Assembly (NCBI GenBank): GCA_045803545.1
Contig: JBJMOW010000005.1
Location: 800,001 to 864,000, forward strand
DNA length: 64,000 nt
Direction of reading: 5' to 3'
DNA from: Gemmatimonadaceae bacterium
Lineage (GTDB): Bacteria; Gemmatimonadota; Gemmatimonadetes; Gemmatimonadales; Gemmatimonadaceae
Under the pieces are notes generated by a model that was given only the letters and a program-made list of their open reading frames with translations, had not been told where the DNA came from and searched no databases. Position 1 is the first letter of the stretch. Each line of letters opens with the position of its first letter. The translations under genes were made by a program, and so were the position numbers. This document shows, piece after piece, positions 8,056 through 31,758 of the stretch.

Positions 8056-8100
8056 AAACAAAAGGCCCGACTGGTTTCCCAGTCGGGCCTTTTGTTTTTT
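8056..8100. terminator. bidirectional intrinsic terminator
   Basis: Perfect inverted repeat AAACAAAAGGCCCGACTGG-tttc-CCAGTCGGGCCTTTTGTTT with U-tracts on both strands, between convergent genes. Confidence 0.92.
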
Positions 8101-8106
8101 GGGCGT

Positions 8107-8412
8107 TCACGAGCCGGTCGAATCCGGCAGAATCTGGACGGTATCAGCAGGAAAGGCGTCCAGCGGATCGGGGCTGGAGTTGGGAATTCCCTCGACCTTC
8201 TCGCCTGGGCCGCTGTCGTCGCAGTCTTCCTCGCAGGTGACAACGCCGGAAATCAGGATGTATCGGCCGAAGGCGGCACCCGTGGGGGCGGTCAAACTGG
8301 CTTTCTTTTGAAGCGGACTGGTGGGGCCGGAGGGACCGGTGGAATCGCTGCAAGCGACGCTGCCACCGACGGCAAGAAGAGCAAAGCCCCAAAGCCAATG
8401 ACGACCTGACAT
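8107..8412 (-). CDS. small lipoprotein, candidate signal-peptide precursor 1 (101 aa, motif AAFGRYILISG-x3-CEEDC)
   Basis: GAGGG SD 8 nt before ATG; signal peptide with lipobox SVAC; motif shared with 14186-14416; preceded by a sigma54 promoter. Confidence 0.8.
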   Translation of the reverse strand: MSGRHWLWGFALLAVGGSVACSDSTGPSGPTSPLQKKASLTAPTGAAFGRYILISGVVTCEEDCDDSGPGEKVEGIPNSSPDPLDAFPADTVQILPDSTGS

Positions 8413-8472
8413 CAACGGATCCCTCGACGATAGAAGATCGGTGGAACACCTTAGATCTAACGACCCGGCCTA

Positions 8473-8520
8473 AGCATACCATGTGCCCCGAAGCAAGTCG
8501 TTTCGCCGTCGATACTTAGT
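8473..8520 (-). promoter_or_regulatory. sigma54 promoter P1 with upstream AA-N19-TTAG element
   Basis: Minus strand GGGCACATGGTATGCT (8488-8473), GG-N10-GC; plus-strand TTAG at 8516 sits at the same offset as in P2 and P3. Confidence 0.8.
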
Positions 8521-8613: not shown

Positions 8614-10224
8614 CTAACCAGTGACCGTCCACTCGGCGAGATCCACCCACCACGCGTTTGGCCTGATTCCGATCGGATGAATCCGTTTGGATGCACCCTG
8701 GACGTTTCTCAACTCATAGATCCACATCGCAGGTGCGTCATCGGTGAGTATCCGATACGCCCGACGATACAACTCGGTGCTACGCGTCGGGTTCATCTCT
8801 CTGACTGCGCTGTCGATAAGGGCGTCGAACGCCGGATTGCTATAGGAGGTCGCGTTGTACCCGCCCTTCTTGATCTCAGAGCTCGCCCACTCCTCCCGCA
8901 CTGAAGATGGTGTCGGATCGATATGCCAGGCATTGAGCAGCACCTCGAATTTCCTGTTTTCCATATTGGCGCCGAAGGTGTTCAGCTCGAGCTCGTCGAT
9001 GCGAACTTCGGCGCCCGCCTTCCGCCACTGCTCCTGAAGCAAGACTGCGATTCGCTTACGAATGGTGCTCGAGCTTGGTACGCTCAAGCTGAATGAAAGC
9101 GGGATCGACCCGCGGGCGCGCATGCCGTTGGCGCCACGCTTCCAACCCAGGGAGTCAAGCGTGCGCGCCGCTCCGTCCGGATCATAGCGAAGCCCGAGGG
9201 TTGTATCGCTCGTGGCAAGAATTCGAGTCGCTGGACCATAGGCAACGAGGCCGAGCGTGTCGAATACGTTTTTCACGATCGACGCGCGATCGATTGCTCT
9301 CACCAAGGCGCGTCGGGTCTCTCGGTCGCCGAACACCGGGTGCGGTCCAGTATTCCGCGCATCGCGGAGGTTGAAAGCGGCGTACCCGTAGTCGAGGCTT
9401 CCGGCGGAGACGATCACGTCTTTGCCCTTCGACTTCACTTCCGCGACCCGTTCGGGCTTCACCACGTCGAGGAAGTCGGCGGTGCCGTCCAGAAATCTGA
9501 GCTCGGCGGTCGGATAATCCGCGGCGATCACCCAGATCACCCTGTCGGCATTCGGTCGACCCCGATAGTTGGTGGTGTCGGCCTGCAGCACGATTCGCGC
9601 GCTACGGTCCCACGACCCGAACTTGAAGCGGCCACTACCAACTGGCGCCCGGGCGAAATCGCTTTCCGCGAGCTTGGCCGCTTGTGTCTTCTCGAGCAAA
9701 TGTTGAGGCAGGATGACAACGGGTGTCGCCGCCTTGAAGAACTGATCGGGCGCACGTCTGTGAAACCATACGACTGCCGTCAGTGAATCGGGCACTGTCA
9801 CCGAATCAACATCGTCGAGATTCCCCGACAGCGGCGAAGCCAGTGAAGTGTCCTTCACCAGGCCGAAGGTGTAGCGCACGTCGTACGCGCTGACCGCCAC
9901 CCCGTCGTGCCAGCGTGCGCTGGGATTTATGTGAAATGATATCCAGGTCGAGTCGGGACTCCACCGCCAGCGATCGGCGAGTCGAGGAGTGAAGCCGGCG
10001 TCGCCGACGGTGTTCAAGGTCGGGCCCACATCAGCAAGGTTATCGAAAACCTGATCTACGACTTGCTTGCCCTGCAGCGTCAGTGTGAGGGGCGGCAACA
10101 GAACGTCAGCGTCTGCAGCGGTCGAGATGACGATCGTTCCACCTACACGCCTCTCCGTCGAGCACGCCGCGAGAACCGACATCAACGCGAGCGTGATCGA
10201 GAAAATGGGAGCTATTCTCTTCAA
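8614..10224 (-). CDS. peptide ABC transporter substrate-binding lipoprotein (SBP family 5, OppA/DppA-like), 536 aa
   Basis: Lipobox LAAC; ARWHDG, PVGSGRFK, ETRRAL, YSNPAFDAL family-5 SBP motifs; TTG start overlaps the upstream stop (TTGA) with AGGA SD. Confidence 0.9.
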   Translation of the reverse strand: MKRIAPIFSITLALMSVLAACSTERRVGGTIVISTAADADVLLPPLTLTLQGKQVVDQVFDNLADVGPTLNTVGDAGFTPRLADRWRWSPDSTWISFHINPSARWHDGVAVSAYDVRYTFGLVKDTSLASPLSGNLDDVDSVTVPDSLTAVVWFHRRAPDQFFKAATPVVILPQHLLEKTQAAKLAESDFARAPVGSGRFKFGSWDRSARIVLQADTTNYRGRPNADRVIWVIAADYPTAELRFLDGTADFLDVVKPERVAEVKSKGKDVIVSAGSLDYGYAAFNLRDARNTGPHPVFGDRETRRALVRAIDRASIVKNVFDTLGLVAYGPATRILATSDTTLGLRYDPDGAARTLDSLGWKRGANGMRARGSIPLSFSLSVPSSSTIRKRIAVLLQEQWRKAGAEVRIDELELNTFGANMENRKFEVLLNAWHIDPTPSSVREEWASSEIKKGGYNATSYSNPAFDALIDSAVREMNPTRSTELYRRAYRILTDDAPAMWIYELRNVQGASKRIHPIGIRPNAWWVDLAEWTVTG

Positions 10225-11867
10225 ACGAAGTTTCCTATTGAGACGGCTGCAATGTTTTGCGGCGTCTGCCGGTCGGGAATCGTGGTGCTCGATGCCCATT
10301 CCAGAAACGCATCGAGCAGCATCGGATCGAACTGCCCGTTAGACGAGCGCATCACTTCGGCGGCACGCGCATGCGACAAGCTATCCCGGTACGACCGCGC
10401 CGTTGTCAGCGCGTCGTAGACGTCGGCGACGCAAAGAATCCGCGCAGCAAACGGGATATCATCCCCTTTCAGTCCATCCGGGTAGCCACTGCCATCCCAC
10501 CGCTCGTGATGATTGCGGATAATCGATCGCACATCACCCGGAAAATCGATGTCGGCCACGAGGTCCAGCCCCGCTTCCGGATGGCGCTTCATGATCGACC
10601 ACTCTTCCTCGGTGAGATCGCCCGCCTTGTTCAATACTTCGGTCGGTACGATGATCTTGCCGATGTCGTGGAGCAGTGCGCCAAGCCTGAACCAGAAGAG
10701 GGACTGGGCGTCCATCCCCATGCTGTCCGCCAGTACGCATGCAAAGAACGCGACGCGTTGGCAGTGACCCTGGGTGTAATGGTCTTTGCTCTCGATCGAA
10801 TCGCCCCAGTGGTGCGCCATCTCGAGAAACCTGGCTTCCAGCGCTGCGTTGCGACGTTCCACCTGCGCTACGCGGTGCTGTGCCTTTAGTCGTGAGTAAA
10901 GCGCGTGCGATTCGTTGAGGTGCGCGAGCATATCGCGATGCCGCTTCTGGGTCCAATACAGCTCCGCGAGTTGCTCGGTGACGTCTGCCTTCAGCAGCAG
11001 GTCCTCTGCTTCCTCGGCGCATTCTGACGCGCGGCCGAGGTATTCGGCGGCCTTCATGGAGTCGCCACGCTCACGTGCAATCACGCCGACATGGCGGAAG
11101 ACTTCACCGCGCCAGGAAGCGGTGATCTCACCCGTAAGCTCCAATAGTGGCGAGGCGCGTTCCTGCGCTTCCTCGAACCGGCCAGTCGCGATGCAGAGCT
11201 GAATCTGATTGAGGGCGACGTTCAGTCTGTTCGCCTGATCGTTCTCCTCACCGAAAGTGCGTTCCGCTTCGGCGTAGGCTTGCGCGGCGCTTTCGAGGTC
11301 CCCGAGGTCGCTATACGCGAGGCCAATGTTGTTGAGGACCTGCGCCGCCTGATCGCGCCGACCGAGCTTTCGATACCCTTCGAAACTCGACTTGAATGCG
11401 CTGAGCGCGCGGTTGATGTCACCGCGAATGCTGGCGACGGTACCCAGATTCTGATCGATCATCGCCAGTGCCTCTGCATCGCCAATCGACTGCGCGGTGA
11501 GGCGTGCTTCCGTGTAGCGCGACTCCGCCAGATCGAGATCACCACCGGTCTGATGGACGATGGCGACTACGTTGAGCGCTTGCGCGATTGCAGACGCTGA
11601 GCCGGCCTGCGATGCAGCGGCAACAGCCGCCTCCAATACATCCATCGCGGCGCCGCGATTGCCCAGCTCGAGGTAGACCCGGCCCAGCCAGCGCAGAGCG
11701 GACAGGCGGGTTACGTCGTCGGCAAACGGATTGCGCACGAGCAGCTCGTAGCGGTGCGACGCATCCGTCCAGCGACCCTCCCGCTCCGCGACTTTCGCTT
11801 CTTCAACGAGAGATTGTATTGCCTGCGATTCCACCTCGCTCTCGCGAGATGTGGAACGTGCCGTCAT
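10221..11867 (-). CDS. TPR-repeat + HD-GYP domain phosphodiesterase (copy 1), 548 aa
   Basis: N-terminal TPR helices (ALNVVA, DQNLG, LNNIG); KDHYTQGHCQRV, LLHDIGK, HHERWDGSGYP, VADVYDALT. Confidence 0.92.
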   Translation of the reverse strand: MTARSTSRESEVESQAIQSLVEEAKVAEREGRWTDASHRYELLVRNPFADDVTRLSALRWLGRVYLELGNRGAAMDVLEAAVAAASQAGSASAIAQALNVVAIVHQTGGDLDLAESRYTEARLTAQSIGDAEALAMIDQNLGTVASIRGDINRALSAFKSSFEGYRKLGRRDQAAQVLNNIGLAYSDLGDLESAAQAYAEAERTFGEENDQANRLNVALNQIQLCIATGRFEEAQERASPLLELTGEITASWRGEVFRHVGVIARERGDSMKAAEYLGRASECAEEAEDLLLKADVTEQLAELYWTQKRHRDMLAHLNESHALYSRLKAQHRVAQVERRNAALEARFLEMAHHWGDSIESKDHYTQGHCQRVAFFACVLADSMGMDAQSLFWFRLGALLHDIGKIIVPTEVLNKAGDLTEEEWSIMKRHPEAGLDLVADIDFPGDVRSIIRNHHERWDGSGYPDGLKGDDIPFAARILCVADVYDALTTARSYRDSLSHARAAEVMRSSNGQFDPMLLDAFLEWASSTTIPDRQTPQNIAAVSIGNFV

Positions 11868-12883
11868 GACGATGCGAGAATGGTGCGCCGCTGGGAGCCT
11901 TCATCGCGCAGTTTGCGCGTCAAAGTGGGGCGGGAGATTCCAAGAATGCGGGCGGCCGCGCTCAGATTGCCACCGGTGAGGCCGATGGTGGTGTGAATCG
12001 CTTCGTCGACGATCGCCTGCAACGACTTCCCCTCGGGCGGGATGCGGATCATGCCGCCCGTCGGAGTTTCGACCAGCGGCACGTAGGAACGCCGCTGAAG
12101 TGAAAGGTGGTGCGGCTGAATGACGTCACCGGTACAGACGACAACCGCGCGCTCGATGACATTCTTGAGCTCGCGGATATTGCCCGGCCAACGGTGTCTT
12201 TCCAGCGCGGCGATCGAGTCCTGGCCCAGACGCAGGTTCTCCCGACCCTCACTTTCGGCGTGGCGGCGAACGAAAAAGTTGGCGAGGATAGGAATGTCTC
12301 CTTCCCTCTCGCGCAACGCCGGAAGCTCGAGCCTTGCAACGTTAAGTCGATAAAAGAGATCGGCACGGAAGCGGTTGTCAGCGACCGCCGTCTCCAGAGA
12401 CGAGTTTGTCCCTGCGACAATGCGTGCGTCAAGAGCGCGTTCTTCGGACCCGCCCAACCGCCGGAATCGCCTGTCTTCGACGACCCTTAGGAGCTTTGCC
12501 TGCAGCTTAAGTGGCAGTTCCGCGACCTCGTCGAGAAAAACAGTCCCGGCGCCGGCCACTTCGAAAAGACCCCGTTTTAACGCGCGGGCATCAGTAAACG
12601 CTCCCGGCTCGTGTCCAAAGAGCTCGCTTTCGAGCAAGGTTTCCGGGATGGCAGCGCAGTTAATCGCTACGAAAGGCTCGGCAGCCCGGGCGCTCGCCGC
12701 GTGGATGCCGCGGGCGAAAAGCTCTTTGCCAGTGCCCGTTTCACCTACGAGCAATACTGTCACGCTGCGACTCGCTGCCACTTGCGTCGCCAGGGCAATG
12801 ACTTCGCGGATTGCAGGGCTCTGTCCGATTACGTGAGCATCCCACCGCTCCTGCGCGGTTTGCTGCAGTCGGGCTGTAATAAT
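11864..12883 (-). CDS. sigma54-dependent activator (AAA+ plus Fis HTH) with no N-terminal sensor domain; start uncertain (ATT 12883 or GTG 12781)
   Basis: VIGQSPAIREV, GETGTGKE, ESELFGHEPGAFTDA, FLDEV, WPGNIREL, GGNLSAAARILGISRPTL. Confidence 0.93.
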   Translation of the reverse strand: MITARLQQTAQERWDAHVIGQSPAIREVIALATQVAASRSVTVLLVGETGTGKELFARGIHAASARAAEPFVAINCAAIPETLLESELFGHEPGAFTDARALKRGLFEVAGAGTVFLDEVAELPLKLQAKLLRVVEDRRFRRLGGSEERALDARIVAGTNSSLETAVADNRFRADLFYRLNVARLELPALREREGDIPILANFFVRRHAESEGRENLRLGQDSIAALERHRWPGNIRELKNVIERAVVVCTGDVIQPHHLSLQRRSYVPLVETPTGGMIRIPPEGKSLQAIVDEAIHTTIGLTGGNLSAAARILGISRPTLTRKLRDEGSQRRTILASS

Positions 12884-13018: not shown

Positions 13019-14128
13019 TTAGAGCTCTGCCGTTGGGGGCTCTGAAATGTCCGGATTCGGGCGGATGTACTTCGGGCGCAATCGCGCAGCCTTCTCCTTC
13101 GATGGGCCTGTTCCGAGCGTTGCGAGCAGTGCTTTAATCTCGGCGGCGTCGGTTCTGGCACCAAGGTCGTCAAATGACTCAGCCGCCTCACGCCAGGCCA
13201 GCTCGGCGTCAGCATTGTTTCCCAGGGCGTGCGAGGTCTGACCGAGCTCACGAAGCATCTCCGCCTGTAAGAGGCGGTCTTCCAGCCCCTCTGCCTCGAA
13301 GATTCCGATACGAAGCGTAGCGAGACTGGCGCTCAGCGACCCGCGTTCGCGCTCGATGCGGGCACGGCACTTCAGCGCCTCGGCCATGGTGAGGTGGTCC
13401 CCGCGGTGGTGGGCGCTCCCATAGGCTTCGGCGCACGCGTGCTCCGCTTCGTCGAGTTTTCCCATCGCGACCCAAACCCAGCCGAGATTGAGAACCAGTA
13501 CGCTCTCGACGAGTGCATCGCCCCGATTGCGGGCAATTCGCAACCCGCGGTCGAAAGTCTCTACCGCCCGCTGATAGTGTCCGAGCTTCGTGTACAGCAT
13601 GCCCAGGTTATTGAGAACCCAGGACATTGCCTCGCTATCCCTTGTCTGCTCGAACGCGCCAAGGCTGTTGTAGTAGCGAGCTTCCGCGGCGACGAATCTG
13701 CCGCGCATGTTGAGGAGAACGCCCCGGTTCTGCTCGATCATTCCGAGCAGACGCACGTCGCCCGCTCTGGCGGCGTACTCCGCCGCTTCGTGATAAAGGC
13801 GCTCGCATTCGATGAGGTTGCCGCGTCGCTGGGCGATGATCGCCAGGCAATTGTACGCGTGTGCCTTGCAGGCGGCCGATCCAGAGAGATCCGCCTGGTG
13901 CAGACTCTCTGTGTAGCAGCGATACGCGGCTTCCGTCTCACCCTGCTCGCGATGCAGAGTTCCCTTCCAGCGAAGGGCTTCGGCTAGAGCAGCTGATTCC
14001 TGCTCACGCTCGAGGGATTCGATGGCGTCGTCGTAGTAGCCGAATGCCTTCGCTGTATCACCCCGCCGCTCAGCATCGCGTGCCAGCTCGATCAGGCGAC
14101 GCGATTCTTCAGGTGCAGTCTGCTTCAT
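13019..14128 (-). CDS. cytoplasmic TPR-repeat protein (copy 1), 369 aa
   Basis: All-helical repeats (ALRWKGTL, AYNCLAII, EQNRGVL, VLNNLGML, LNLGWV); no signal peptide. Confidence 0.88.
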   Translation of the reverse strand: MKQTAPEESRRLIELARDAERRGDTAKAFGYYDDAIESLEREQESAALAEALRWKGTLHREQGETEAAYRCYTESLHQADLSGSAACKAHAYNCLAIIAQRRGNLIECERLYHEAAEYAARAGDVRLLGMIEQNRGVLLNMRGRFVAAEARYYNSLGAFEQTRDSEAMSWVLNNLGMLYTKLGHYQRAVETFDRGLRIARNRGDALVESVLVLNLGWVWVAMGKLDEAEHACAEAYGSAHHRGDHLTMAEALKCRARIERERGSLSASLATLRIGIFEAEGLEDRLLQAEMLRELGQTSHALGNNADAELAWREAAESFDDLGARTDAAEIKALLATLGTGPSKEKAARLRPKYIRPNPDISEPPTAEL

Positions 14129-14185: not shown

Positions 14186-14416
14186 CTACTTCAAACTGTC
14201 GGTTCTGAAAAGAAGATTTTTCGCTTGGTCGGTGCAGCCTTCGACACAGGCTTGCGCGCCAGAGATGAGAATGTAGCGCGAATATGCTGCAGTAACCGGA
14301 GAGCTGGAATTTACGGTTTTAAGAGGCGGGCTGGTAAGAGCGGTGTAATCTCCGCACGCAAGACACGCGACGGCGCTCACAGCCGCCAAATACTTAAACA
14401 AACGGCGACCTAACAT
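14186..14416 (-). CDS. small lipoprotein, candidate signal-peptide precursor 2 (76 aa, motif AAYSRYILISG-x3-CVEGC)
   Basis: GAGGTGG SD before ATG 14416; MLGRRLFKYLAAVSAVACLAC signal peptide/lipobox; motif shared with 8107-8412. Confidence 0.82.
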   Translation of the reverse strand: MLGRRLFKYLAAVSAVACLACGDYTALTSPPLKTVNSSSPVTAAYSRYILISGAQACVEGCTDQAKNLLFRTDSLK

Positions 14417-14462
14417 GTGAACCACCTCGGAAAGAGATCTGGGTCCTTCCCAGCTCAACCGT

Positions 14463-14579
14463 GGCATAGGGCGTGCCCTTTGCTAACCCACTGTTCTACA
14501 TGATCTTAGCGCGAGTGGGTTGGTTTCCCGCATCCATTTTGTCGTAACGCCGCTTTACGATCGTAAACGTTTCTTTAGC
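14463..14579 (-). promoter_or_regulatory. sigma54 promoter P2 with GCTAA-N19-TTAGC element and tandem 19-bp candidate activator sites
   Basis: Minus strand GGGCACGCCCTATGCC (14478-14463); GCTAA 14482, TTAGC 14506; TCGTAACGCCGCTTTACGA (14542-14560) and TCGTAAACGTTTCTTTAGC (14561-14579). Confidence 0.82.
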
Positions 14580-14594
14580 GGACTTTCTTCGGCG

Positions 14595-16241
14595 TCACGC
14601 GGCGGGACTGGAGGCGAAAATCGCCAACCTTTGTGGCGTCGGACGGCCTGGAATGTCGGCGGTCTCGGCCCAGGCAAGGAAGGTTTCGAGTAGCTCGGGA
14701 TCAAATTGACCTGCTGATGACTGCATGATCTCGGCTGCGCGGGCGTGGGTCAGGCCCGGACGATAGGATCTGGTCGTGGTCAGGGCGTCGTAGACATCGG
14801 CCACGCAGAGAATTCGCGCCGCGTAAGGGATCTGCTCGCCCTTGAGGCCGTCCGGGTAGCCGGCACCATCCCAGCGCTCGTGATGATTGCGAATGATGGC
14901 GCGTATGTCACCGGGAAAATCGATGTCAGCGACCAGTTCGAGCCCCGCCTCGGGGTGACGCTTCATGATCGACCACTCTTCATCGGTCAGCTTGCCCGGC
15001 TTGTTTAGCACCTCGGTGGGAACGATGATTTTGCCAATGTCGTGCAGAAGTGCGCCAATCCTGAACCAGAACAGTGAGCGCGAATTGAATCCCGCGGTCT
15101 CGGCGAGTACGCACGCGAAGAAAGCGACGCGCTCGCAGTGGCCCTGGGTGTAGCGATCCTTGCTTTCGATCGAGTTGCCCCACTGCTTCGCCATCTCGAG
15201 GAAACGGGACTCCAAGGCATCGTTGCGCTTATCGACCTGTGCCACCCGATGCTGCGCCTTGAGCTGCGAATAGAGTGAGTGCGACTCGTTGAGCGAGTGA
15301 AGCATGTCGCGGTGCCGCTTCTGTGACCAGTAAACTTCCGCGAGCTGCTCCGCGACGTCCGCCCGCAGGAGAAGGTCACCGCTGTCGATTGCGAGATCTT
15401 CTGCGCGCAACAGGCTGTCGGTCGCTTTCGCGTAATCTCCGCACTCGCGAGCGATCACGCCCACGTGGCGGTGTACCTCCCCGCGCCACGGCGCCTGCTC
15501 CTTCGTGGCGACCTCCAATAGCTCGTCGCATTGGACGAGCGCTTCGTCGAAGCGACGTGCCGCGATGTAGAGCTGCACCTTGTTGACAGCGAGGTCGAGT
15601 TGTCGCGCGCGGTCTCCCTCTTCTTCGAACGCCCGAGCGGCTTCGTTGTACGCAACTTCGGCATCGCTCAGCTCGCCGAGCTCCATGTAGGCGAGTGCGA
15701 TGTTGTTCAGTATCTGAGCTTCATGATTACGCATGCCCAGAGTCTGGTATCCGAGATGGCTCAGACGGAAAGCTTCGAGCGCAACCCGGATGTCGCCGCG
15801 GATCATTGCGACCGTGCCGAGGTTTTGATCGATCATGGCGATCAATGCGCCGTCGCCGGCCACCTCCGCTTTGGCGCGCGCGGCGGCGTAAATAGCGGCA
15901 GCCTGGTCGAGGTCTCCGCCAACCTGGTAGGCGATGCCAACCACGTTGAGCGCCTGAGCCACGGCCGGTGGCGAGCCACAGATGTCAGCAGATGTGACCG
16001 CCAATTCGAGCACGTCCAGCGCCGCGCCACGATTCCCCTGCTCGAGATAGGCGCGACCGAGCCAGCGGAGGGCGGCAAGGCGAGTATCCGGCTGCGTGTG
16101 GGGGTCGCGAACCAACGTCTCATAGACTGCGCAGGCGTCGGCCCATCGACCTTCCCGCTCGGCTTTCTTGGCGAGGTCAATACTTTCGCGAACGGTGGTG
16201 GATTCCACCGCCTTCAATTCAACTGTGGGCCGGTTGGTCAT
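14595..16241 (-). CDS. TPR-repeat + HD-GYP domain phosphodiesterase (copy 2), 548 aa
   Basis: Clear paralog of 10221-11867, same length; KDRYTQGHCERV, LLHDIGK, HHERWDGAGYP. Confidence 0.92.
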   Translation of the reverse strand: MTNRPTVELKAVESTTVRESIDLAKKAEREGRWADACAVYETLVRDPHTQPDTRLAALRWLGRAYLEQGNRGAALDVLELAVTSADICGSPPAVAQALNVVGIAYQVGGDLDQAAAIYAAARAKAEVAGDGALIAMIDQNLGTVAMIRGDIRVALEAFRLSHLGYQTLGMRNHEAQILNNIALAYMELGELSDAEVAYNEAARAFEEEGDRARQLDLAVNKVQLYIAARRFDEALVQCDELLEVATKEQAPWRGEVHRHVGVIARECGDYAKATDSLLRAEDLAIDSGDLLLRADVAEQLAEVYWSQKRHRDMLHSLNESHSLYSQLKAQHRVAQVDKRNDALESRFLEMAKQWGNSIESKDRYTQGHCERVAFFACVLAETAGFNSRSLFWFRIGALLHDIGKIIVPTEVLNKPGKLTDEEWSIMKRHPEAGLELVADIDFPGDIRAIIRNHHERWDGAGYPDGLKGEQIPYAARILCVADVYDALTTTRSYRPGLTHARAAEIMQSSAGQFDPELLETFLAWAETADIPGRPTPQRLAIFASSPAA

Positions 16242-16325: not shown

Positions 16326-17348
16326 CTACTGCAGCAGCTCGAGCTGATTCCTGACTTCTGTTAGCTCTGGCACAGCTCCGATCTTCTCGTACGAGTCAAA
16401 AGCTTCTCGCAAGGCAGAGCGCGCAGCGCCGGCGTTGCCTACGGCACGGGAGATCTCGCCCAGCTCGCGAAGCATTTCGGCGTGGAGGAGCCGGTCTTCG
16501 GCTCCTTCGGCTTCGTAGATCGCGATGCGGAGCGTGGCAATGCTCATGTCGAGCGCACCACGCTGCCGCTCGATGGCGGCACGGACACGCAGCGCGCCAG
16601 CAGCGCTGAGGTGGTCTCCGCGACGTTGCGCCTGACCAAGTGCGTCGACGCACCAGAGGTCTGCTTTGTCGAGTCTGCCGAGACCCATCCACGCTTCGGC
16701 GATGTTCAGCGTGATGACGTTCTTCACGATGCTATCGTTCCGGGCGATTGCGATCGCCATCCCGCGCTGCAGATGCTCGAGCGCTTCGCCGTAATTGCGC
16801 AACTTGGTGTTCAGAATTCCCAGGTTGTTGAGAACCCAGGACATCGGTTCGGTGTCACCCGCGGTCTCGAAAGCACCGAGGCTATTGGAGTAGAACGCCG
16901 CGGCCTTTCCATAGTCGCCAACCATGCTCGCGAGCACACCGCGATTCTGTTCTATCATGCCGAGCAGGCGCGCCTCTCCAGCCTTCACGGCGAGCTCGGA
17001 CGCTTCCGCGTAGAGACGCTCGGTTTCCTTGTGCTCGCAGCGACGCTGCGAGATGGTGCCGAGGCAGTTGAGTGCGTGAGCCTGGTGACCGATGGAACCG
17101 GTCGCTCTTGCCCTCTCCAGGCTTGCCGTATAACAGCGAAACGCTGCTTCGGTTTCGCCCCGCTCCCGAAGCAGCGTTCCTTTCCATCGCAAAACGTCGG
17201 CGATAAATGCGTCGGTGCAATCCTCACCGAGCTGCGCCAGCGCATCGTCGAACAGACCAAGCGCCTTGTCGTTTTCTTCCCGCTTTTCAGCTGTTCGCGC
17301 CAGTTCTACAAGTTGGCGGGCGCGCTCTACATTCTTTGAGTTTTTCAT
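16326..17348 (-). CDS. cytoplasmic TPR-repeat protein (copy 2), 340 aa
   Basis: Paralog of 13019-14128 (LRWKGTL, RLLGMIEQNRGVL, MSWVLNNLG, EDRLL.AEMLRELG). Confidence 0.88.
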   Translation of the reverse strand: MKNSKNVERARQLVELARTAEKREENDKALGLFDDALAQLGEDCTDAFIADVLRWKGTLLRERGETEAAFRCYTASLERARATGSIGHQAHALNCLGTISQRRCEHKETERLYAEASELAVKAGEARLLGMIEQNRGVLASMVGDYGKAAAFYSNSLGAFETAGDTEPMSWVLNNLGILNTKLRNYGEALEHLQRGMAIAIARNDSIVKNVITLNIAEAWMGLGRLDKADLWCVDALGQAQRRGDHLSAAGALRVRAAIERQRGALDMSIATLRIAIYEAEGAEDRLLHAEMLRELGEISRAVGNAGAARSALREAFDSYEKIGAVPELTEVRNQLELLQ

Positions 17349-17396: not shown

Positions 17397-18050
17397 TCAG
17401 CCTGACGCCAGCATGTATCGGGAGAAGTGGTTCAACAGCCACGTCTCGACTTCAGCCTGGCCGCTGCGTGGATTCGAGAAAATCGTGGTCGTTTCGATTT
17501 CCAACGCACGTAGAATGCCTGACAGATCCAGCAGGTCGTGGGCGAAATACGCGCCGAACGAATTCAGTGCCTTCGGCGTGCCGTATACCGCAGTGTTGTT
17601 GAGGCGCTGGGTGACGACCACCGGTTTACGGAACGTGAGACCGTGCGGCTGCATGTCATAAGCGACGTAGCCGGTGCCGTCCGACGTGATGGTGATAGTG
17701 GTCGACGAGGTCAACGCGCCGTAGGGGAAACTGATCGTGAAGTCCGATCCCGGGATGGCGAGGGTTCCACCATTGACGCCAATCGTCGCAGAAACGCTGC
17801 GGACCTGATTGACGTGAGAAGGTGACCACTTCACTGCGTTGACCGGTATACCGTTCGGATCCGTCTGGAATCCGATGACGCGGATCACGTCGCCGAGGAG
17901 ATTGACGACTCCGCCGACGAGTCCTGAAAGGAGACCGTTATCGGCGGTGGTTGGAGCGACTGGTTGAGTTGGGATGCTGTCCGTGCACGACATGACTCCG
18001 ACAGCCGTGACAACGAGCAGCAGCGAGCGGAAAAATCTTGAGCGAATCAT
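17397..18050 (-). CDS. ZU5-like domain lipoprotein B ending in HFSRYMLASG (217 aa)
   Basis: MIRSRFFRSLLLVVTAVGVMSC lipoprotein signal; GGTLAIPGSDFTISFPYGAL...ITIT...MQPHGLTFRKPVVVT matches the ZU5 pattern. Confidence 0.8.
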   Translation of the reverse strand: MIRSRFFRSLLLVVTAVGVMSCTDSIPTQPVAPTTADNGLLSGLVGGVVNLLGDVIRVIGFQTDPNGIPVNAVKWSPSHVNQVRSVSATIGVNGGTLAIPGSDFTISFPYGALTSSTTITITSDGTGYVAYDMQPHGLTFRKPVVVTQRLNNTAVYGTPKALNSFGAYFAHDLLDLSGILRALEIETTTIFSNPRSGQAEVETWLLNHFSRYMLASG

Positions 18051-18085: not shown

Positions 18086-18706
18086 TCAACCAGAAGCAAG
18101 CATGTAACGCGAGAAGTGCCTGATGATCCACACCTGCGCTTCAGGGAGCCGCGCATTGAGTGGCGAGAAGATCGTGGTCGAAGGCTCGATCTCGAGGACC
18201 GGGACTTTGCCACTGAGCTTCACCTTATCATCGGAGATATAGGCCGCGAAGATCGACGTTCTCAGCGGCTGACCTGCGACGGTGGTGTTGCGCAGGGACT
18301 GCGTGATGGTGACGTCTTTTTTGAACTGCGTCCCCGTCGGCTCCATCTTGTAGGCGACGTACTTCTCGTCGGCCGTGACGGTGATGGTCAGCGCCGAGCC
18401 GAGCGCCCCGGCCGGGATGTCCATCGTGAAGCCGGTTTCGGGAATCGAGATCCGCCCGCCAGACTGATCGACGCGCTGCGAAACCTTTACCTGAGTTTTG
18501 CCTTTGTTGCTCCACCACAGGGCATGCAGCTCGAGGTCAGCCGCGGCATTGTTTATCGAACTGGTAACCGAGCCGGAGCCAGGACCTTTCGCGGCAGCTG
18601 CGTCCAGGGGAGCAGTGAGACTCTGGAGAGCGGGATCGGCGCAGGAAGCGATAAGGAGCGCGCCGACGAGCGAGCCAAAGGATCTGAAGAGTCTAAGGCG
18701 AAGCAT
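18086..18706 (-). CDS. ZU5-like domain lipoprotein A ending in HFSRYMLASG (206 aa)
   Basis: Lipobox IASC; GGRISIPETGFTMDIPAGAL...ITVT...MEPTGTQFKKDVTIT ZU5 pattern; paralog of 17397-18050. Confidence 0.8.
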   Translation of the reverse strand: MLRLRLFRSFGSLVGALLIASCADPALQSLTAPLDAAAAKGPGSGSVTSSINNAAADLELHALWWSNKGKTQVKVSQRVDQSGGRISIPETGFTMDIPAGALGSALTITVTADEKYVAYKMEPTGTQFKKDVTITQSLRNTTVAGQPLRTSIFAAYISDDKVKLSGKVPVLEIEPSTTIFSPLNARLPEAQVWIIRHFSRYMLASG

Positions 18707-18748
18707 TCTGGGTCCGTGTTAGGGAAGCGGGGTTGAGGCCCTCCCTAA

Positions 18749-18880
18749 GGCAACGGCTGTGCCCAGCGCTAAGCTGTTTTAAATCAATGAGTTAGCTTTT
18801 CCACATTGAGCGAGCTCATCAATAACGGTGCAATATTTTTTTACACCCGAAATTTTTCTTTACATCTGTCAATTTTTTAC
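18749..18880 (-). promoter_or_regulatory. sigma54 promoter P3 with IHF consensus site and tandem candidate activator sites
   Basis: Minus strand GGGCACAGCCGTTGCC (18764-18749); AATCAA-TGAG-TTA (18782-18794) matches IHF WATCAANNNNTTR; 19-bp units at 18828-18846 and 18847-18865 containing TTTACA. Confidence 0.85.
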
Positions 18881-19084: not shown

Positions 19085-20650
19085 ATGTCGATGGCAAATA
19101 ACAGAGCACGGCTCGTCGTAGCCGTAATTACCGCTTTTGTAGGCGGATTGATCGTCGCATCCGGGTTCAACTGGACCAAGCTCGGATTTGCGCAAACTCG
19201 TCCCGCCGCGGCAGTAGTCCAGCCAATTGCCGAGGCCAGCAACGCGTTCGTCGCGATCGCCAACAACGTCACTCCGGCGGTCGTTTCGATCGAAGTCGTA
19301 AGCACGCCGAAGAGCTCGAATAGCACGACTCGCGGACGCGTCCAGGTTCCACAAGGCGTTCCGCCTGACATGCAGGACTTCTTCCGTCAATTCGATATCC
19401 CGCAGCAATCGCGTCCAATGCGCGGTCAGGGTTCCGGGTTCATCGTAACGTCGAACGGATACATTCTTACCAACAATCACGTCGTCACCAATCAGGATCG
19501 TGAAACGGTGGCCGATCGCGTGACGGTGAGACTGCTCGATCATCGCGTGTTCACTGCGAAAGTGATCGGTCACGATCGCACGACCGACGTCGCGGTAATC
19601 AAGATCGATGGCAGCAACTTCCCCACCTTGCCGCTTGGCAACGATATGAACGCGCGCACCGGCGAATGGGTACTCGCGATCGGCAATCCGCTTGGTCTCG
19701 AAAATACCGTCACCGCCGGTATCATCAGCGCGAAAGGCCGCAGCCTCGCCGAGCTGATGAATCCGAATGGAACGAATCAGTACGCGATCAGCGATCTGAT
19801 ACAGACCGACGCGGCGATCAACCCCGGCAACTCCGGTGGTCCGCTCGTCAATGCGCGTGGCGAAGTGATCGGCATCAACAGCGCGATCGCCAGTCCGACC
19901 GGCTATAACGCGGGCTACGGTTTCGCAATTCCGATCACGCTGGCTAAGCGCGTCATGGATCAGCTCATTGCCAATGGGCGCGTACGCGTTCCGGCGCTCG
20001 GCATCGGCATCGATGATGTGAGTCCTGAAGACGCAGCGGTCGCGGGCGTGAAAGACATTCGAGGCGTTCTCGTTCGGAACTTCCCGAGCGACGATACGCC
20101 GGCTAAGAAGGCGGGCCTTCAGCCGGGTGACGTGATCATCACGGCGGATGGTCAGCCGGTCGATCGCGTCAGCACTCTCCAGAGAATCGTGCGCAATCAC
20201 AACCCTGGCGAGACGATCGAGATCGAAGCGATGCGGTACGGTCAGCGCAAGACTTTCAGCGTCAAGTTGATGGAAGCGCAGACTGACGCCGAAGTCGCTT
20301 CCAGTAACTCCACTCCCGCGAGCAACGGCGGCACCATTCATCCGGCGCTGGGGATCGCAGTGGCGCCGGTAAGTGCCGAGATGGCGGCGCAGGCAAGGAT
20401 GCCAACTCCAGTTCGTGGCGTCATGGTTTCCGATGTCACCCCTGGCGGTCCTGCCGACGAGAAGCTGACTCAGAACGACGTCATCACCGAAGTCCTTTAC
20501 CCGCTGCCGCGCCGTCCGATCAACTCGCCGACGGATCTACAGTCGATACTGAAAGGATTGAAGAACGGCGAGTATATCAGTCTCAGTGTTTTCAACCTAG
20601 CGGACAGAAATCATGCTCCGCGGATCGTCAACATTCAGGTTGGCAGATAG
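19085..20650 (+). CDS. degP: HtrA/DegP family periplasmic serine protease with PDZ domains
   Basis: GSGFIV, TNNHVV, DVAVIK, QTDAAINPGNSGGPL; C-terminal PDZ segments. Confidence 0.95.
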   Translation: MSMANNRARLVVAVITAFVGGLIVASGFNWTKLGFAQTRPAAAVVQPIAEASNAFVAIANNVTPAVVSIEVVSTPKSSNSTTRGRVQVPQGVPPDMQDFFRQFDIPQQSRPMRGQGSGFIVTSNGYILTNNHVVTNQDRETVADRVTVRLLDHRVFTAKVIGHDRTTDVAVIKIDGSNFPTLPLGNDMNARTGEWVLAIGNPLGLENTVTAGIISAKGRSLAELMNPNGTNQYAISDLIQTDAAINPGNSGGPLVNARGEVIGINSAIASPTGYNAGYGFAIPITLAKRVMDQLIANGRVRVPALGIGIDDVSPEDAAVAGVKDIRGVLVRNFPSDDTPAKKAGLQPGDVIITADGQPVDRVSTLQRIVRNHNPGETIEIEAMRYGQRKTFSVKLMEAQTDAEVASSNSTPASNGGTIHPALGIAVAPVSAEMAAQARMPTPVRGVMVSDVTPGGPADEKLTQNDVITEVLYPLPRRPINSPTDLQSILKGLKNGEYISLSVFNLADRNHAPRIVNIQVGR

Positions 20651-29619: not shown

Positions 29620-31758
29620 CTATTTAATCCGAAGGACGTCCTCGGCCGGTCCCGCATCGCCCGTCTTGAGCAAATGGTGGGCATCGCGAAGTGCGTGGGC
29701 TTCTCGCGGCCAGGTGAAGCGCTCGCAGGCGCGCTCGAGAGTCAGCCACTCGAAACGTTGATGCTCGTCGCTGAGCTCGACGTCTGCATCAGCAGCGACG
29801 AAGGCGGCGAAGGTAAGACACATCTGAATGGTGTTCGAAGCGTGCAGGTAGAAGCTGCTGACGGTAACGTTGTACAATGACTCGGCTTTGAGCCCGGTTT
29901 CTTCTTTGAGCTCGCGGACTACAGCTTTTTCCGGCTTCTCACGGGCGTCGACTTTTCCGTAGACGGTTTCCCAGGAATTCGGTCGCTTGCCATCGGCGGC
30001 CCGCTGCAGTACAAGCACCCGCCAGTCGCCACCGTTGTGCTTGATCACGAACAGCTCGACGACGCCCGGTTTGATCTTGGTCATTCCTTCCTCACGACTG
30101 CGCTCGTAAACCATCCCTCCAGGCGAATTATATGATGCCGATGGCGTCGAAGGCGTCGAGCGTGATGTCTCGGGTTCGATCACACGTACCAGCTCTTCAG
30201 CACTGGTGTTGCCGGCAAGGAGCTGAGCGCAGCCACATACCCATAGCGAACGGGTACCCGATTGGCGCGCGGCTGAGAGCAGTCGCTCCGGCGGCTCATT
30301 GCCTGCGATCGCGCGCTCGATTTCGGGTGTAGTGACCAGCACTTCGGTCACGGCAACTCGTCCCGCATATCCCGTCATCGAGCATTCGGCGCAACCAATT
30401 GGAATGTAGATCATTGACGTTTGCGGAATCGCGCCGAGCAGGCGACGGGGTACGCCGGCATTTGCCACCAGCTTGCACGCAGGACAGAGCCGACGAATGA
30501 GACGTTGCGCGACGACACCCTTGAGCGCTCCGGCGAGCTTGACCGAATCGACCCCGAGGTCGGTGAGGCGAATGATCGAGCTGCAGGCATCGTTGGTGTG
30601 AAGGGTCGCGAAGACGAGGTGACCGGTGAGCGACGCCTGAATTGCGATGGCTGCGGTCTCACGATCGCGAATCTCGCCGATGAGGACCACGTCGGGATCC
30701 TGTCTCAACACGGATCGCAGCGCCGACGCGAAGGTAAGGCCCGCTTTCTCGTGGATCTGCACCTGAACGATACCGGGAATCCGGTACTCGACCGGATCTT
30801 CAACGGTGATAATGTTGACGCCGCGGTGCAGCAGCAGCCGCAGCGCAGCATAGAGCGTCGTCGTTTTGCCAGAGCCGGTCGGCCCCGTCACGAGGATCAG
30901 TCCCTCGCGGACATCCAGCAGCTTCTGCATGCGCGGGCCGTCGACCGGATCGAGACCGAGCGATTCGACCGAGCGGACCGCGGCGCGGGAATCCAGAATA
31001 CGGATCACGACTTTCTCGCCGTGTGACGCCGGCAGTGTGGAGACCCGTAGGTCGACCCGTGCGCCATTGATCGAGACCCGCGCGCGTCCTCCCTGTGGCC
31101 TCAGCCGGTCGGCGATGTCCATTCCCGACATGATCTTGATTCGCGAAACCAATGGAATGCCGACTGCCTTCGGCAAAACCATCACTTCCTTGAGCATCCC
31201 GTCGATGCGATATCGTACCGCGATTCCATGCTCGCCCGCCTCGAGATGGATGTCGCTTGCCCCGGCGGCAATGCCCTCCGCAACGATGTGATCGACCAGC
31301 TTGATGACGGGCCGCTCGGCCTGCTGGTCGTCGAGCGACGGGTCGGCTGCCAGCTCCGCCTTTTCGGTGACTGGCTGTGGCCCTTCCGTCGACGTCTTGT
31401 CGACAAGCTTGCCGATCGGATCGAGTGGCGCGTACACCTCTTCGATTCTATCGGCGATGCGCTGCGGCGCTGAAAGGAGCATGCGGATTTTCCTGCCGGT
31501 CGCAAATGCCAGAGTCTTCTCGCAGTCAATGTCGAAGGGGTTCGACGTTGCGACATCGAGGACGGAATCTGAGATGGCGAGCGGAAGAATCGCGAAGCGT
31601 CGGGCGAAGCGCTCGGGAACGCTGTCACGTGCCTCGGCGCTCACAACGAGACTGTGCGCGATCGTCGTTTCGCTCTGAGCGGCGAGGACCTCGAGGATTT
31701 GTTCTTCAGATCCAAGTCCGGACTTGGAAACGTCATCCCAGGTCAGCAGTGCGGTCAT
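29620..31758 (-). CDS. GspE/PilB family secretion ATPase in frame with a C-terminal NUDIX hydrolase domain
   Basis: ASDIHLE, GPTGSGKTTT, TVEDPVE, LRQDPDVVLIGEIRD, TGHLVFATLH, CxxC pairs; then Nudix box GKVDAREKPEKAVVRELKEETGL. Confidence 0.88.
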   Translation of the reverse strand: MTALLTWDDVSKSGLGSEEQILEVLAAQSETTIAHSLVVSAEARDSVPERFARRFAILPLAISDSVLDVATSNPFDIDCEKTLAFATGRKIRMLLSAPQRIADRIEEVYAPLDPIGKLVDKTSTEGPQPVTEKAELAADPSLDDQQAERPVIKLVDHIVAEGIAAGASDIHLEAGEHGIAVRYRIDGMLKEVMVLPKAVGIPLVSRIKIMSGMDIADRLRPQGGRARVSINGARVDLRVSTLPASHGEKVVIRILDSRAAVRSVESLGLDPVDGPRMQKLLDVREGLILVTGPTGSGKTTTLYAALRLLLHRGVNIITVEDPVEYRIPGIVQVQIHEKAGLTFASALRSVLRQDPDVVLIGEIRDRETAAIAIQASLTGHLVFATLHTNDACSSIIRLTDLGVDSVKLAGALKGVVAQRLIRRLCPACKLVANAGVPRRLLGAIPQTSMIYIPIGCAECSMTGYAGRVAVTEVLVTTPEIERAIAGNEPPERLLSAARQSGTRSLWVCGCAQLLAGNTSAEELVRVIEPETSRSTPSTPSASYNSPGGMVYERSREEGMTKIKPGVVELFVIKHNGGDWRVLVLQRAADGKRPNSWETVYGKVDAREKPEKAVVRELKEETGLKAESLYNVTVSSFYLHASNTIQMCLTFAAFVAADADVELSDEHQRFEWLTLERACERFTWPREAHALRDAHHLLKTGDAGPAEDVLRIK

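Follow-up and report, generated by a model that had tools for sequence, protein, structure and literature searches.

ZU5-less mini-lipoproteins of the Gemmatimonadaceae retain the last strand of a ZU5 parent under purifying selection

Introduction

Enterococcal sex pheromones are short hydrophobic peptides that derive from lipoprotein signal sequences, are taken up through Opp and are recognised by a receptor with a TPR fold. AgrD is processed by AgrB to a thiolactone formed from one cysteine, and the product signals via a membrane histidine kinase. The signals of RRNPP systems are typically smaller than a 16-residue, disulfide-ringed hydrophobic peptide of the kind considered below.

The RRNPP systems (Rap-Phr, NprR-NprX, PlcR-PapR) are treated as systems of Gram-positive Firmicutes in the sections of PMC10075063 drawn on here, which give 21–50 aa as the size of validated propeptides, and phr genes carry duplicated Phr peptides according to the relevant part of PMC5199041. 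A second point of comparison is the self-cutting ZU5/GAIN/MAIN fold. Bacterial ZU5 domains are described in toxins and large surface proteins only, as far as the pertinent sections of PMC3482391 extend. The main text of a preprint on MAIN proteins (bioRxiv 10.64898/2026.05.12.724683) reports that microbial GAIN-like cut products remain bound unless they are pulled apart and that the tethered peptide has no known signalling role; that main text, supplements excluded, never mentions Gemmatimonad, ZU5, lipoprotein or TPR.

Here we analyse a window of 64,000 nucleotides from a Gemmatimonadaceae contig that contains SL1, the gene of a small lipoprotein. SL1 belongs to a family of ZU5-less mini-lipoproteins (minis), which is undescribed in the literature searched. 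That search, largely confined to sources outside subscription journals, returned no paper on RRNPP or peptide/TPR quorum sensing in Gemmatimonadota and none linking ZU5 to HD-GYP.

The SL1 Gene and Its Locus

Ten genes follow one another along the minus strand in the order ZU5-A, ZU5-B, TPR2, TPR-HD-GYP2, SL2, TPR1, sigma-54 activator, TPR-HD-GYP1, OppA and SL1, and a Pfam scan of their products returned SBP5, TPR, HD, sigma-54 activator and ZU5 families only, with none for SL1. ZU5-A (18086–18706) and ZU5-B (17397–18050) are lipoproteins that both end HF/SRYMLASG, the slash marking the predicted cut site, and are followed by TPR2 (16326–17348), which comes after RYMLAS-type ZU5 genes, and by TPR-HD-GYP2 (14595–16241). 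SL2 (14186–14416) encodes a 76-aa mini (AAY-SRYILISG-AQA-CVEGC) and precedes TPR1 (13019–14128), a stand-alone TPR protein. The sigma-54 activator (AAA+, HTH; 11864–12781) has a true start that is perhaps further upstream. TPR-HD-GYP1 (10221–11867) is a predicted cytoplasmic c-di-GMP phosphodiesterase by its Pfam matches and carries HHERWDGSGYP. The OppA-like peptide-binding lipoprotein (SBP_bac_5 in Pfam; 8614–10299) has no adjoining permease genes; these adjoin other SBP5 genes, at C5:222917–226214 and C2:1059312. Elsewhere in the window, at 29620–31758, a GspE/PilB-type ATPase appears, as judged by eye, to be fused to a C-terminal NUDIX-like domain.

SL1 itself, the second copy of the mini family in this locus, runs on the minus strand from an ATG at 8412 to a stop at 8107, and the 101-aa frame, lipobox, Ser/Pro/Thr-rich linker, motif, CxxxC pair and acidic tail of the original prediction are all present in the sequence. 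The predicted lipoprotein signal sequence (8350–8412), placed from sequence and alignment, has a basic n-region, a hydrophobic h-region and the lipobox SVA-C21, which was assigned by rule and conservation, with Ser at -3 as against the usual Leu, Val or Ile. The lipobox Cys and Asp+3 are invariant in 50/50 aligned minis, and the host genome encodes two LspA. A linker of 26 aa, 13 of them Ser, Pro or Thr, leads to the motif stretch (8221–8277), which translates to AAFGRYILISGVVTCEEDC and comprises AAF (8269–8277), the GRYILISG core (8245–8268) and the CEEDC cysteine pair (8221–8235), likely a disulfide ring. The acidic, weakly conserved tail that follows (8110–8220; 37 aa, 8 Asp/Glu) is typical of minis beside oppA, where net tail charge ranges from -4 to -11 across 16 minis.

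The motif RY[IM]L[IA]SG after Ser or Gly occurs at four sites in the 3.7-Mb genome, all inside 11 kb (SL1, SL2 and the two ZU5 tails), at a chance expectation of about 0.045 matches genome-wide; one looser match, RYLVAG, lies elsewhere. SL1 differs from the family at three positions: Ser is replaced by Gly at +1, Trp by Val at +10 and Val by Glu at +13. Gly+1 is found in 3/26 anchored minis (defined below) and in 22 of the best 120 homologues. Apart from the empty Pfam scan, an NCBIfam scan of 50 mini members gave two single weak matches only, the ESM Atlas held no match to the mini at ≥0.8, and its ESM model has a pLDDT of 0.26.

The sequence supports the sigma-54 promoter originally proposed for SL1. 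A -24/-12 type box (GGGCAC-N5-ATGC) lies on the minus strand at 8472–8489, with its GG at 8487, about 75 bases 5' of the ATG and with a predicted start near 8462; a box of this type is present upstream in 94/94 distinct mini-gene leaders, versus 0.3% of random 150-nt windows. With the GG-N10-GC box, sigma-54 encoded in the genome and an activator gene in the locus, SL1 fits a sigma-54-dependent gene as far as sequence features indicate. Similar boxes on the same strand precede SL2 (14462–14479) and ZU5-A (18748–18765). Of the proposed terminator, the structure stands: a strong 19-bp hairpin, a likely terminator, is present at 8056–8097 (-38.8 kcal/mol, z -8.5), and as it sits between SL1 and the convergent dnaK it is probably shared by both. 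A simple scan for sigma-70 promoters and terminators found none, missing this hairpin.

Expression data came from 4 of 14 listed soil RNA runs, in contigs at 88% likeness, where uncovered parts are uninformative. One contig spans SL1 from 8245 to 8450 with 10 differences, and three runs span SL2, one of them matching it with zero differences. The predicted SL2 start is near 14452, and the three matches stop a little short of it, at 14439, 14443 and 14431. These matches are a weak hint of transcription of SL1 and SL2, the comparison covering RNA runs only and run X1 showing depth in 28/30 bins.

Comparison with Described Systems

The likeness to RRNPP systems as portrayed in PMC10075063, within the sections drawn on here, lies in a small exported protein with a short conserved peptide, a cytoplasmic TPR protein of 340–370 aa in the locus whose model resembles Rap, an OppA-type gene nearby, and the duplication of peptides both as whole genes and within genes, as in phr (PMC5199041, same limits). 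SL1 is 101 aa and SL2 76 aa, against a propeptide size range of 10–100 aa; TPR1 and TPR2 fall within the 250–500 aa given for TPR-containing receptors, and the TPR-HD proteins (548 aa) exceed it. SL2 lies 57 bases from TPR1, adjacent as an RRNPP propeptide gene is expected to be, whereas SL1 is flanked by oppA and dnaK, with TPR-HD1 about 1.8 kb away. The mini has a lipoprotein (SPII) signal, whereas those sections of PMC10075063 specify export by Sec, of SPI type under the strict rule, followed by maturation through exopeptidases. SL1 thus resembles an RRNPP propeptide yet departs from two of the five criteria of that source, signal type and TPR adjacency. It differs further in its cysteine pair and its descent from a ZU5-domain protein, in the outputs of the locus (HD-GYP and a sigma-54 activator) and in its host, a member of the Gemmatimonadaceae, and the present system is a prediction from sequence.

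The motif corresponds to the strand after the HF/S site in the ZU5 fold, and the idea of a signal residing in that strand parallels the Stachel peptide of adhesion GPCRs, but SL1 lacks the beta-sandwich domain around the cut site. Where ZU5 proteins have the H-x-[S/T] motif SL1 reads A-F-G; without a ZU5 domain and His, and with Gly at +1, it cannot cut itself. The anchor of the mini is N-terminal, whereas MAIN proteins, in the main text of their preprint, have their anchor at the C-terminal side and shed a large portion from the N-terminus.

As with the enterococcal pheromones, a lipoprotein would be the peptide source, but the mini peptide lies about 27 residues past the Cys predicted to be lipidated, and no part of the mini is less conserved than its signal sequence (dN/dS 0.63). 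With AgrD the mini shares a leader, a short core whose cysteine ring segment spans five residues, and an acidic tail; it differs in having two cysteines and a lipobox, and no AgrB or AgrC/AgrA-type gene was found among the window ORFs around the locus.

Origin of the Minis

In another genome of the same genus (G036) the place of SL2 is held by a full ZU5 lipoprotein, ZU5-C, which ends NHF/SRYILISGVWVCVEGC, and the tail of ZU5-C genes follows the pattern HF/SRYILISG-VWxV. An AlphaFold model of ZU5-C (pLDDT 87.7) has the ZU5 fold, with ankyrin ZU5 domains as best Foldseek matches (E 4.8e-6), and its tail forms a single strand (residues 177–187). In alignment the mini follows ZU5-C through the signal sequence and the linker as far as ASF and then passes directly into SRYILISG, with about 150 residues of ZU5-C missing. 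We conclude from these sequences that the mini arose from ZU5-C through in-frame deletion of the ZU5 domain. The core is accordingly the ancestral ZU5-C tail, the last beta-strand and post-cleavage tail of that protein, retained without its domain; it is not a new variant of the RYMLASG tail of ZU5-A/B, as had been supposed, but the unchanged tail of a third paralogue that survives whole in relatives. The AAF of SL1 marks the deletion joint and derives from the N-terminal linker (ASF) of ZU5-C. The lack of a His before the aromatic residue, also noted originally, is real (His is found at -2 in 1/26 anchored minis), and we attribute it to the joint, not to a variant signal.

Related loci were collected through TPR-HD1, a search independent of the motif, which yielded 45 of 52 candidates from Gemmatimonadaceae or higher Gemmatimonadota ranks once 7 distant HD-domain matches had been left out. 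The slot before TPR1 was covered in 31 of the 45, and contained ZU5-C in 14, a mini in 17 and neither in none. Since the slot always holds one or the other, the mini replaces the sole source of the RYILISG peptide while TPR1 is retained. Several ZU5-C genes have Phe-Ser codons flanking the missing piece at both ends, with an exact TTCTCT repeat in L163, and such repeats would suit deletion by microhomology. A tree of activator and TPR-HD1 (54 rows, quick method) placed ZU5-C loci in outer branches. In a DNA tree built from the promoter and 5' part (50 rows), a minimum of two changes between ZU5-C and mini is required, four minis nesting with four ZU5-C genes at 100/99, and constraining all minis into one group gave a borderline p-AU of 0.049. 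The scaffold was lost in this genus at least once and probably twice, a single loss followed by regain through recombination being a possible alternative. Intein-like protein splicing of ZU5-C to the mini was rejected, the joint being present in the DNA and the fold being ZU5.

In the DNA tree the minis beside oppA group together as a clade of 10 (100/98) nested inside the other minis, so SL1 is a later duplicate. It is also dispensable: where the slot beside oppA was covered (35 loci), an SL1-type mini was found in 7, a reverse-strand type II mini in 4 and neither in 24. Type II minis, which read RYILASG with C-x9-C in 8/8 and lack the sigma-54 box in 8/8 leaders, are encoded on the opposite strand in the slot that separates oppA from dnaK (L187:2501–2833, L189, L190, L195, L064, L077, L093 and L119) and follow the pattern [NFH]T-RYILASG-[DE]xxPPxC-x-D-[LV]-G-[ND]-G-[YFL]-W-x-C, with a core that is the tail of a rarer ZU5-A variant. 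The same slot holds, again on the opposite strand, a small exported gene in L165 (5374–6166) and L193 (13278–13905), presumably cupin-like by its motif. One full ZU5-C (L079:245–904) has HFA in place of HFS, and so is probably unable to self-cut, with tail and cysteine pair intact.

Comparable events are found further afield. A distant family of the same class contains a ZU5-less mini-lipoprotein that ends C-Y-[AS]-L-C-I-E and is encoded within an array of five ZU5 genes whose tails read S-x-Y-[AS]-L-C-[IV]-E, located before a TPR-HD gene (L260:10954–11250, in G506:C29; L307:2336–2692; P0241–P0247). All seven homologues (7/7) keep this end while the preceding part varies, and the protein carries a CxxxC without an F/S site. 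As judged from sequence, this is an independent scaffold loss with a locus-matched tail. Outside the genus ZU5-less minis are rare, being found in 1 of 80 distant loci, which were picked from the best ZU5 matches. The parent cassette is phylum-wide, with ZU5 matches in 133/401 genomes; near short-tail ZU5 genes, TPR-HD occurs in 19/20 and 50/59 distant loci and OppA in 9/20 and 17/59. A tandem second tail was seen in 3/59 distant ZU5 loci, in lipoproteins at L337:9222–9881 (SRYVIAF-SDYVIAW), L346:8581–9384 (SGYVLRSK-SRYAVAY) and L380:9401–10162 (SDYVLL-STYAVVY). A small-ORF match in L367 was dropped, as it appeared to be part of a longer ORF that is not a lipoprotein. Extra ZU5 and TPR cassettes occur in L188, L203, L102 and L112, where three tail types go with three stand-alone TPR genes, and a 4374-residue open frame outside the window (G000:C4 near 525228, minus strand) contains, close to its start, an internal site of ZU5 type, HFSTYAVL.

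Conservation and Selection

As the pattern scan of metagenomes forces the motif, conservation figures rest on 26 anchored type I genes, 24 from TPR-HD-anchored loci plus SL1 and SL2, and figures from 89 genes and 120 proteins are supporting only. Across the 26, the core residues R, I, L, I, S and G never vary, nor does the first Cys; the Tyr position reads Tyr in 24 and Trp in 2, and the second Cys is present in 25, so that CxxxC is complete in 25/26. Pairwise dN/dS, from pairs that are not independent, is lowest in the core (0.017), followed by the cysteine segment (0.115), and rises to 0.43 in the linker and 0.63 in the signal sequence. Synonymous sites of the core are near saturation (pS 0.64, pN 0.024) and many synonymous codons are used at its positions; between SL1 and SL2 alone, 5/7 core codons differ silently. 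The residues directly preceding the core are likewise under purifying selection (pN 0.25–0.29 against pS 0.75–0.78). As far as the motif, the coding frame alone stays open in 26/26, the other frames being mostly closed. Most type I minis are 64–103 aa, and the distance from Cys to motif is constant, at 21–29 residues in the unique minis listed. Residues +9 to +14 that are shared with ZU5-C are kept too, and the core shows no drift towards the RYMLASG of the remaining ZU5-A/B.

Of 8000 candidates scored in a profile search, 545 proteins reached E≤0.001, and the best 120 of these are all unnamed or hypothetical and all carry the core, which bears out the expectation that such a gene is easily missed. 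RYILISG is conserved far above background in this set as in the anchored minis, the point on which the original prediction had staked itself. In the best 120, -3 is Ala or Gly in 120/120, -1 is F in 94, Y in 19, H in 4, N in 2 and S in 1, and +1 is Ser in 92, Gly in 22 and Thr in 6; as +1 varies among Ser, Gly and Thr, a self-cutting nucleophile is not required there. CxxxC is present in 119 of the best 120; in full ZU5-C it is found in 14 of the best 120 homologues and in 3/14 anchored genes. Strong mini matches are limited to this genus among 401 family genomes, and a whole-protein search of 201 phylum genomes gave as strong matches only the two copies in this genome, with 11 weak ones (E 0.002–0.009). 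The tally of a first DNA pattern (114/251 family genomes) was discarded, since most matches read [RS]Y[IM]FVTG, which we take to be CTP synthase; of 20 regions examined from it, L044 and L046 alone had the locus.

A strand that stays unchanged once its sandwich is gone must contact something else. The RYILISG tail, then, is under purifying selection without a ZU5 domain and works outside its own fold, as read from these sequences.

Candidate Partners

TPR1 follows every RYILIS-type gene, mini or whole. TPR proteins encoded after RYILIS genes form one clade (29 rows, support 100, FastTree) that includes followers of both gene forms and stands apart from the TPRs after RYMLAS genes, a pattern that cassette duplication alone could produce. 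TPR1 (369 aa) and TPR2 (340 aa) both have TPR_12 matches, and the all-helical model of TPR1 (pLDDT 95.2) best matches LGN peptide complexes, with Rap proteins at E about 3e-6. TPR1 here and its counterparts in L159, L185 and L203 share a long branch and a C-terminal extension, marking, as one event, a sub-lineage whose slot-2 minis lost Trp+10. A single pair run of complex prediction with TPR1 (1–339) and SL1 residues 49–80 returned a score of 0.03 and a mark of 0.32, and counts neither way. TPR-HD, the more constant neighbour across the phylum, is an equally good candidate receptor. For both, a receptor role is suggested by gene order and fold, and as neither has an export signal the peptide would need import.

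Having no ZU5 domain, the mini would need a trans-acting protease for any release, as the original prediction proposed. A universal protease site is not apparent, since the -1 residue varies and the distant mini lacks F/S. An HtrA/DegP protease gene at 19085–20650, divergent from ZU5-A, is syntenic in this genus; it is absent from the single-cassette locus L046 and without a match in 20 distant loci, and was set aside as the cutting protease, its case being one of proximity.

Proposed Mechanism

Our best reading, to which we give a probability of about one half, is that the mini is a propeptide cut by an outside protease, imported through Opp and sensed by TPR or TPR-HD-GYP proteins. Once exported and lipidated, SL1 would sit anchored in the membrane as a precursor of the tail peptide that ZU5-C, by prediction, cuts off itself; every step following export is inferred. 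The outside protease would cut at or near A-x-F/G, within the candidate site A-x-[FYHN]/[SGT] at the joint. The cysteine pair may close a disulfide ring that either stabilises the free peptide or halts trimming at about 16 residues, which is the length of the ZU5-C tail. The OppA of the locus, with an Opp permease encoded elsewhere, would import the peptide, and TPR1, the TPR-HD-GYP proteins or both would bind it, altering c-di-GMP breakdown and the output of the sigma-54 activator, which might feed back on the mini's own promoter. SL1 would then supply the RYILISG channel in addition, from a transcript of its own and possibly with tuning by Gly+1. As GAIN-like cut products stay bound unless pulled apart, release of the tail from the parent ZU5-C is uncertain.

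It is less probable, though worth weighing, that the mini acts uncut, as a tethered ligand or decoy whose linker of 25–28 residues offers the ringed peptide to OppA or another envelope receptor and so damps or mimics a signal, the Gly+1 copy being a non-releasable antagonist. The constant Cys-to-motif distance, a cut site that is not universal, the position of SL1 directly behind oppA and the long acidic tails, which would hamper import, all agree with a tether. On the other side, the mini has replaced ZU5-C in 17/31 loci, where a pure decoy would guard against a peptide no longer made, and the purifying selection just before the core is what a processing site would show.

Somewhat more doubtful is a role as strand-exchange partner of ZU5-A/B in the envelope, in which the mini strand enters the self-cut ZU5 groove and expels the RYMLASG tail or plugs the groove. 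The motif does originate as a ZU5 beta-strand; the ZU5-A/B tail is kept in all 12 anchored slot-2 mini loci that reach it, the other 5 ending short; the distant-family mini sits inside a five-gene ZU5 array; and GAIN-like cut products need help in parting, by the main text of the MAIN preprint (bioRxiv 10.64898/2026.05.12.724683). Yet RYILISG has not shifted to RYMLASG and +9 to +14 are kept, which points to the existing partner of the ZU5-C tail, and strand exchange leaves unexplained why TPR1 follows the mini.

We consider it improbable that the cysteine pair is the working part, as a metal or redox sensor or in a disulfide-linked dimer, with the strand a small structural hairpin: all three ZU5-less kinds do have two cysteines (type I CxxxC, type II C-x9-C, distant CxxxC), but the core is held more tightly than the cysteine segment, the pair is absent from 106 of the best 120 full ZU5-C, and what is retained in the distant mini is the tail found at that locus and no general motif. 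That the mini is a decaying, functionless ZU5-C remnant, as loss of the sole folded domain and the want of a Pfam or NCBIfam family could suggest, is contradicted by the selection data, the frame open in 26/26, the promoter box in 94/94 and 545 homologues, and can be dismissed.

Implications

The propeptide reading extends to a broader proposal, which we put forward tentatively and with less assurance: that the last strand of self-cutting ZU5 lipoproteins is a Stachel-like signal used across the phylum, passing via Opp to TPR or TPR-HD-GYP proteins, and that the scaffold was repeatedly lost with strand and cysteine ring kept, the minis being a new class of disulfide-ringed lipoprotein propeptides and the Gly+1 copy perhaps an intrinsic antagonist or a tuner. 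A weak point of ZU5-tail signalling is that a conserved last strand might serve the fold only, and the minis address it as a natural deletion experiment: two separate families, each with locus-matched sequences, have lost the fold and still hold the strand fixed. An abundant soil phylum that has been little studied thereby offers a peptide signal that is directly testable with synthetic peptides of 8 to 16 residues and five candidate partners. The result would bear on whether, in bacteria, a peptide that remains after GAIN-like self-cleavage acts as a signal. Mini genes of this kind number in the hundreds and are now annotated as hypothetical or left unannotated. If the mechanism holds, they would represent a new form of peptide-propeptide signalling.
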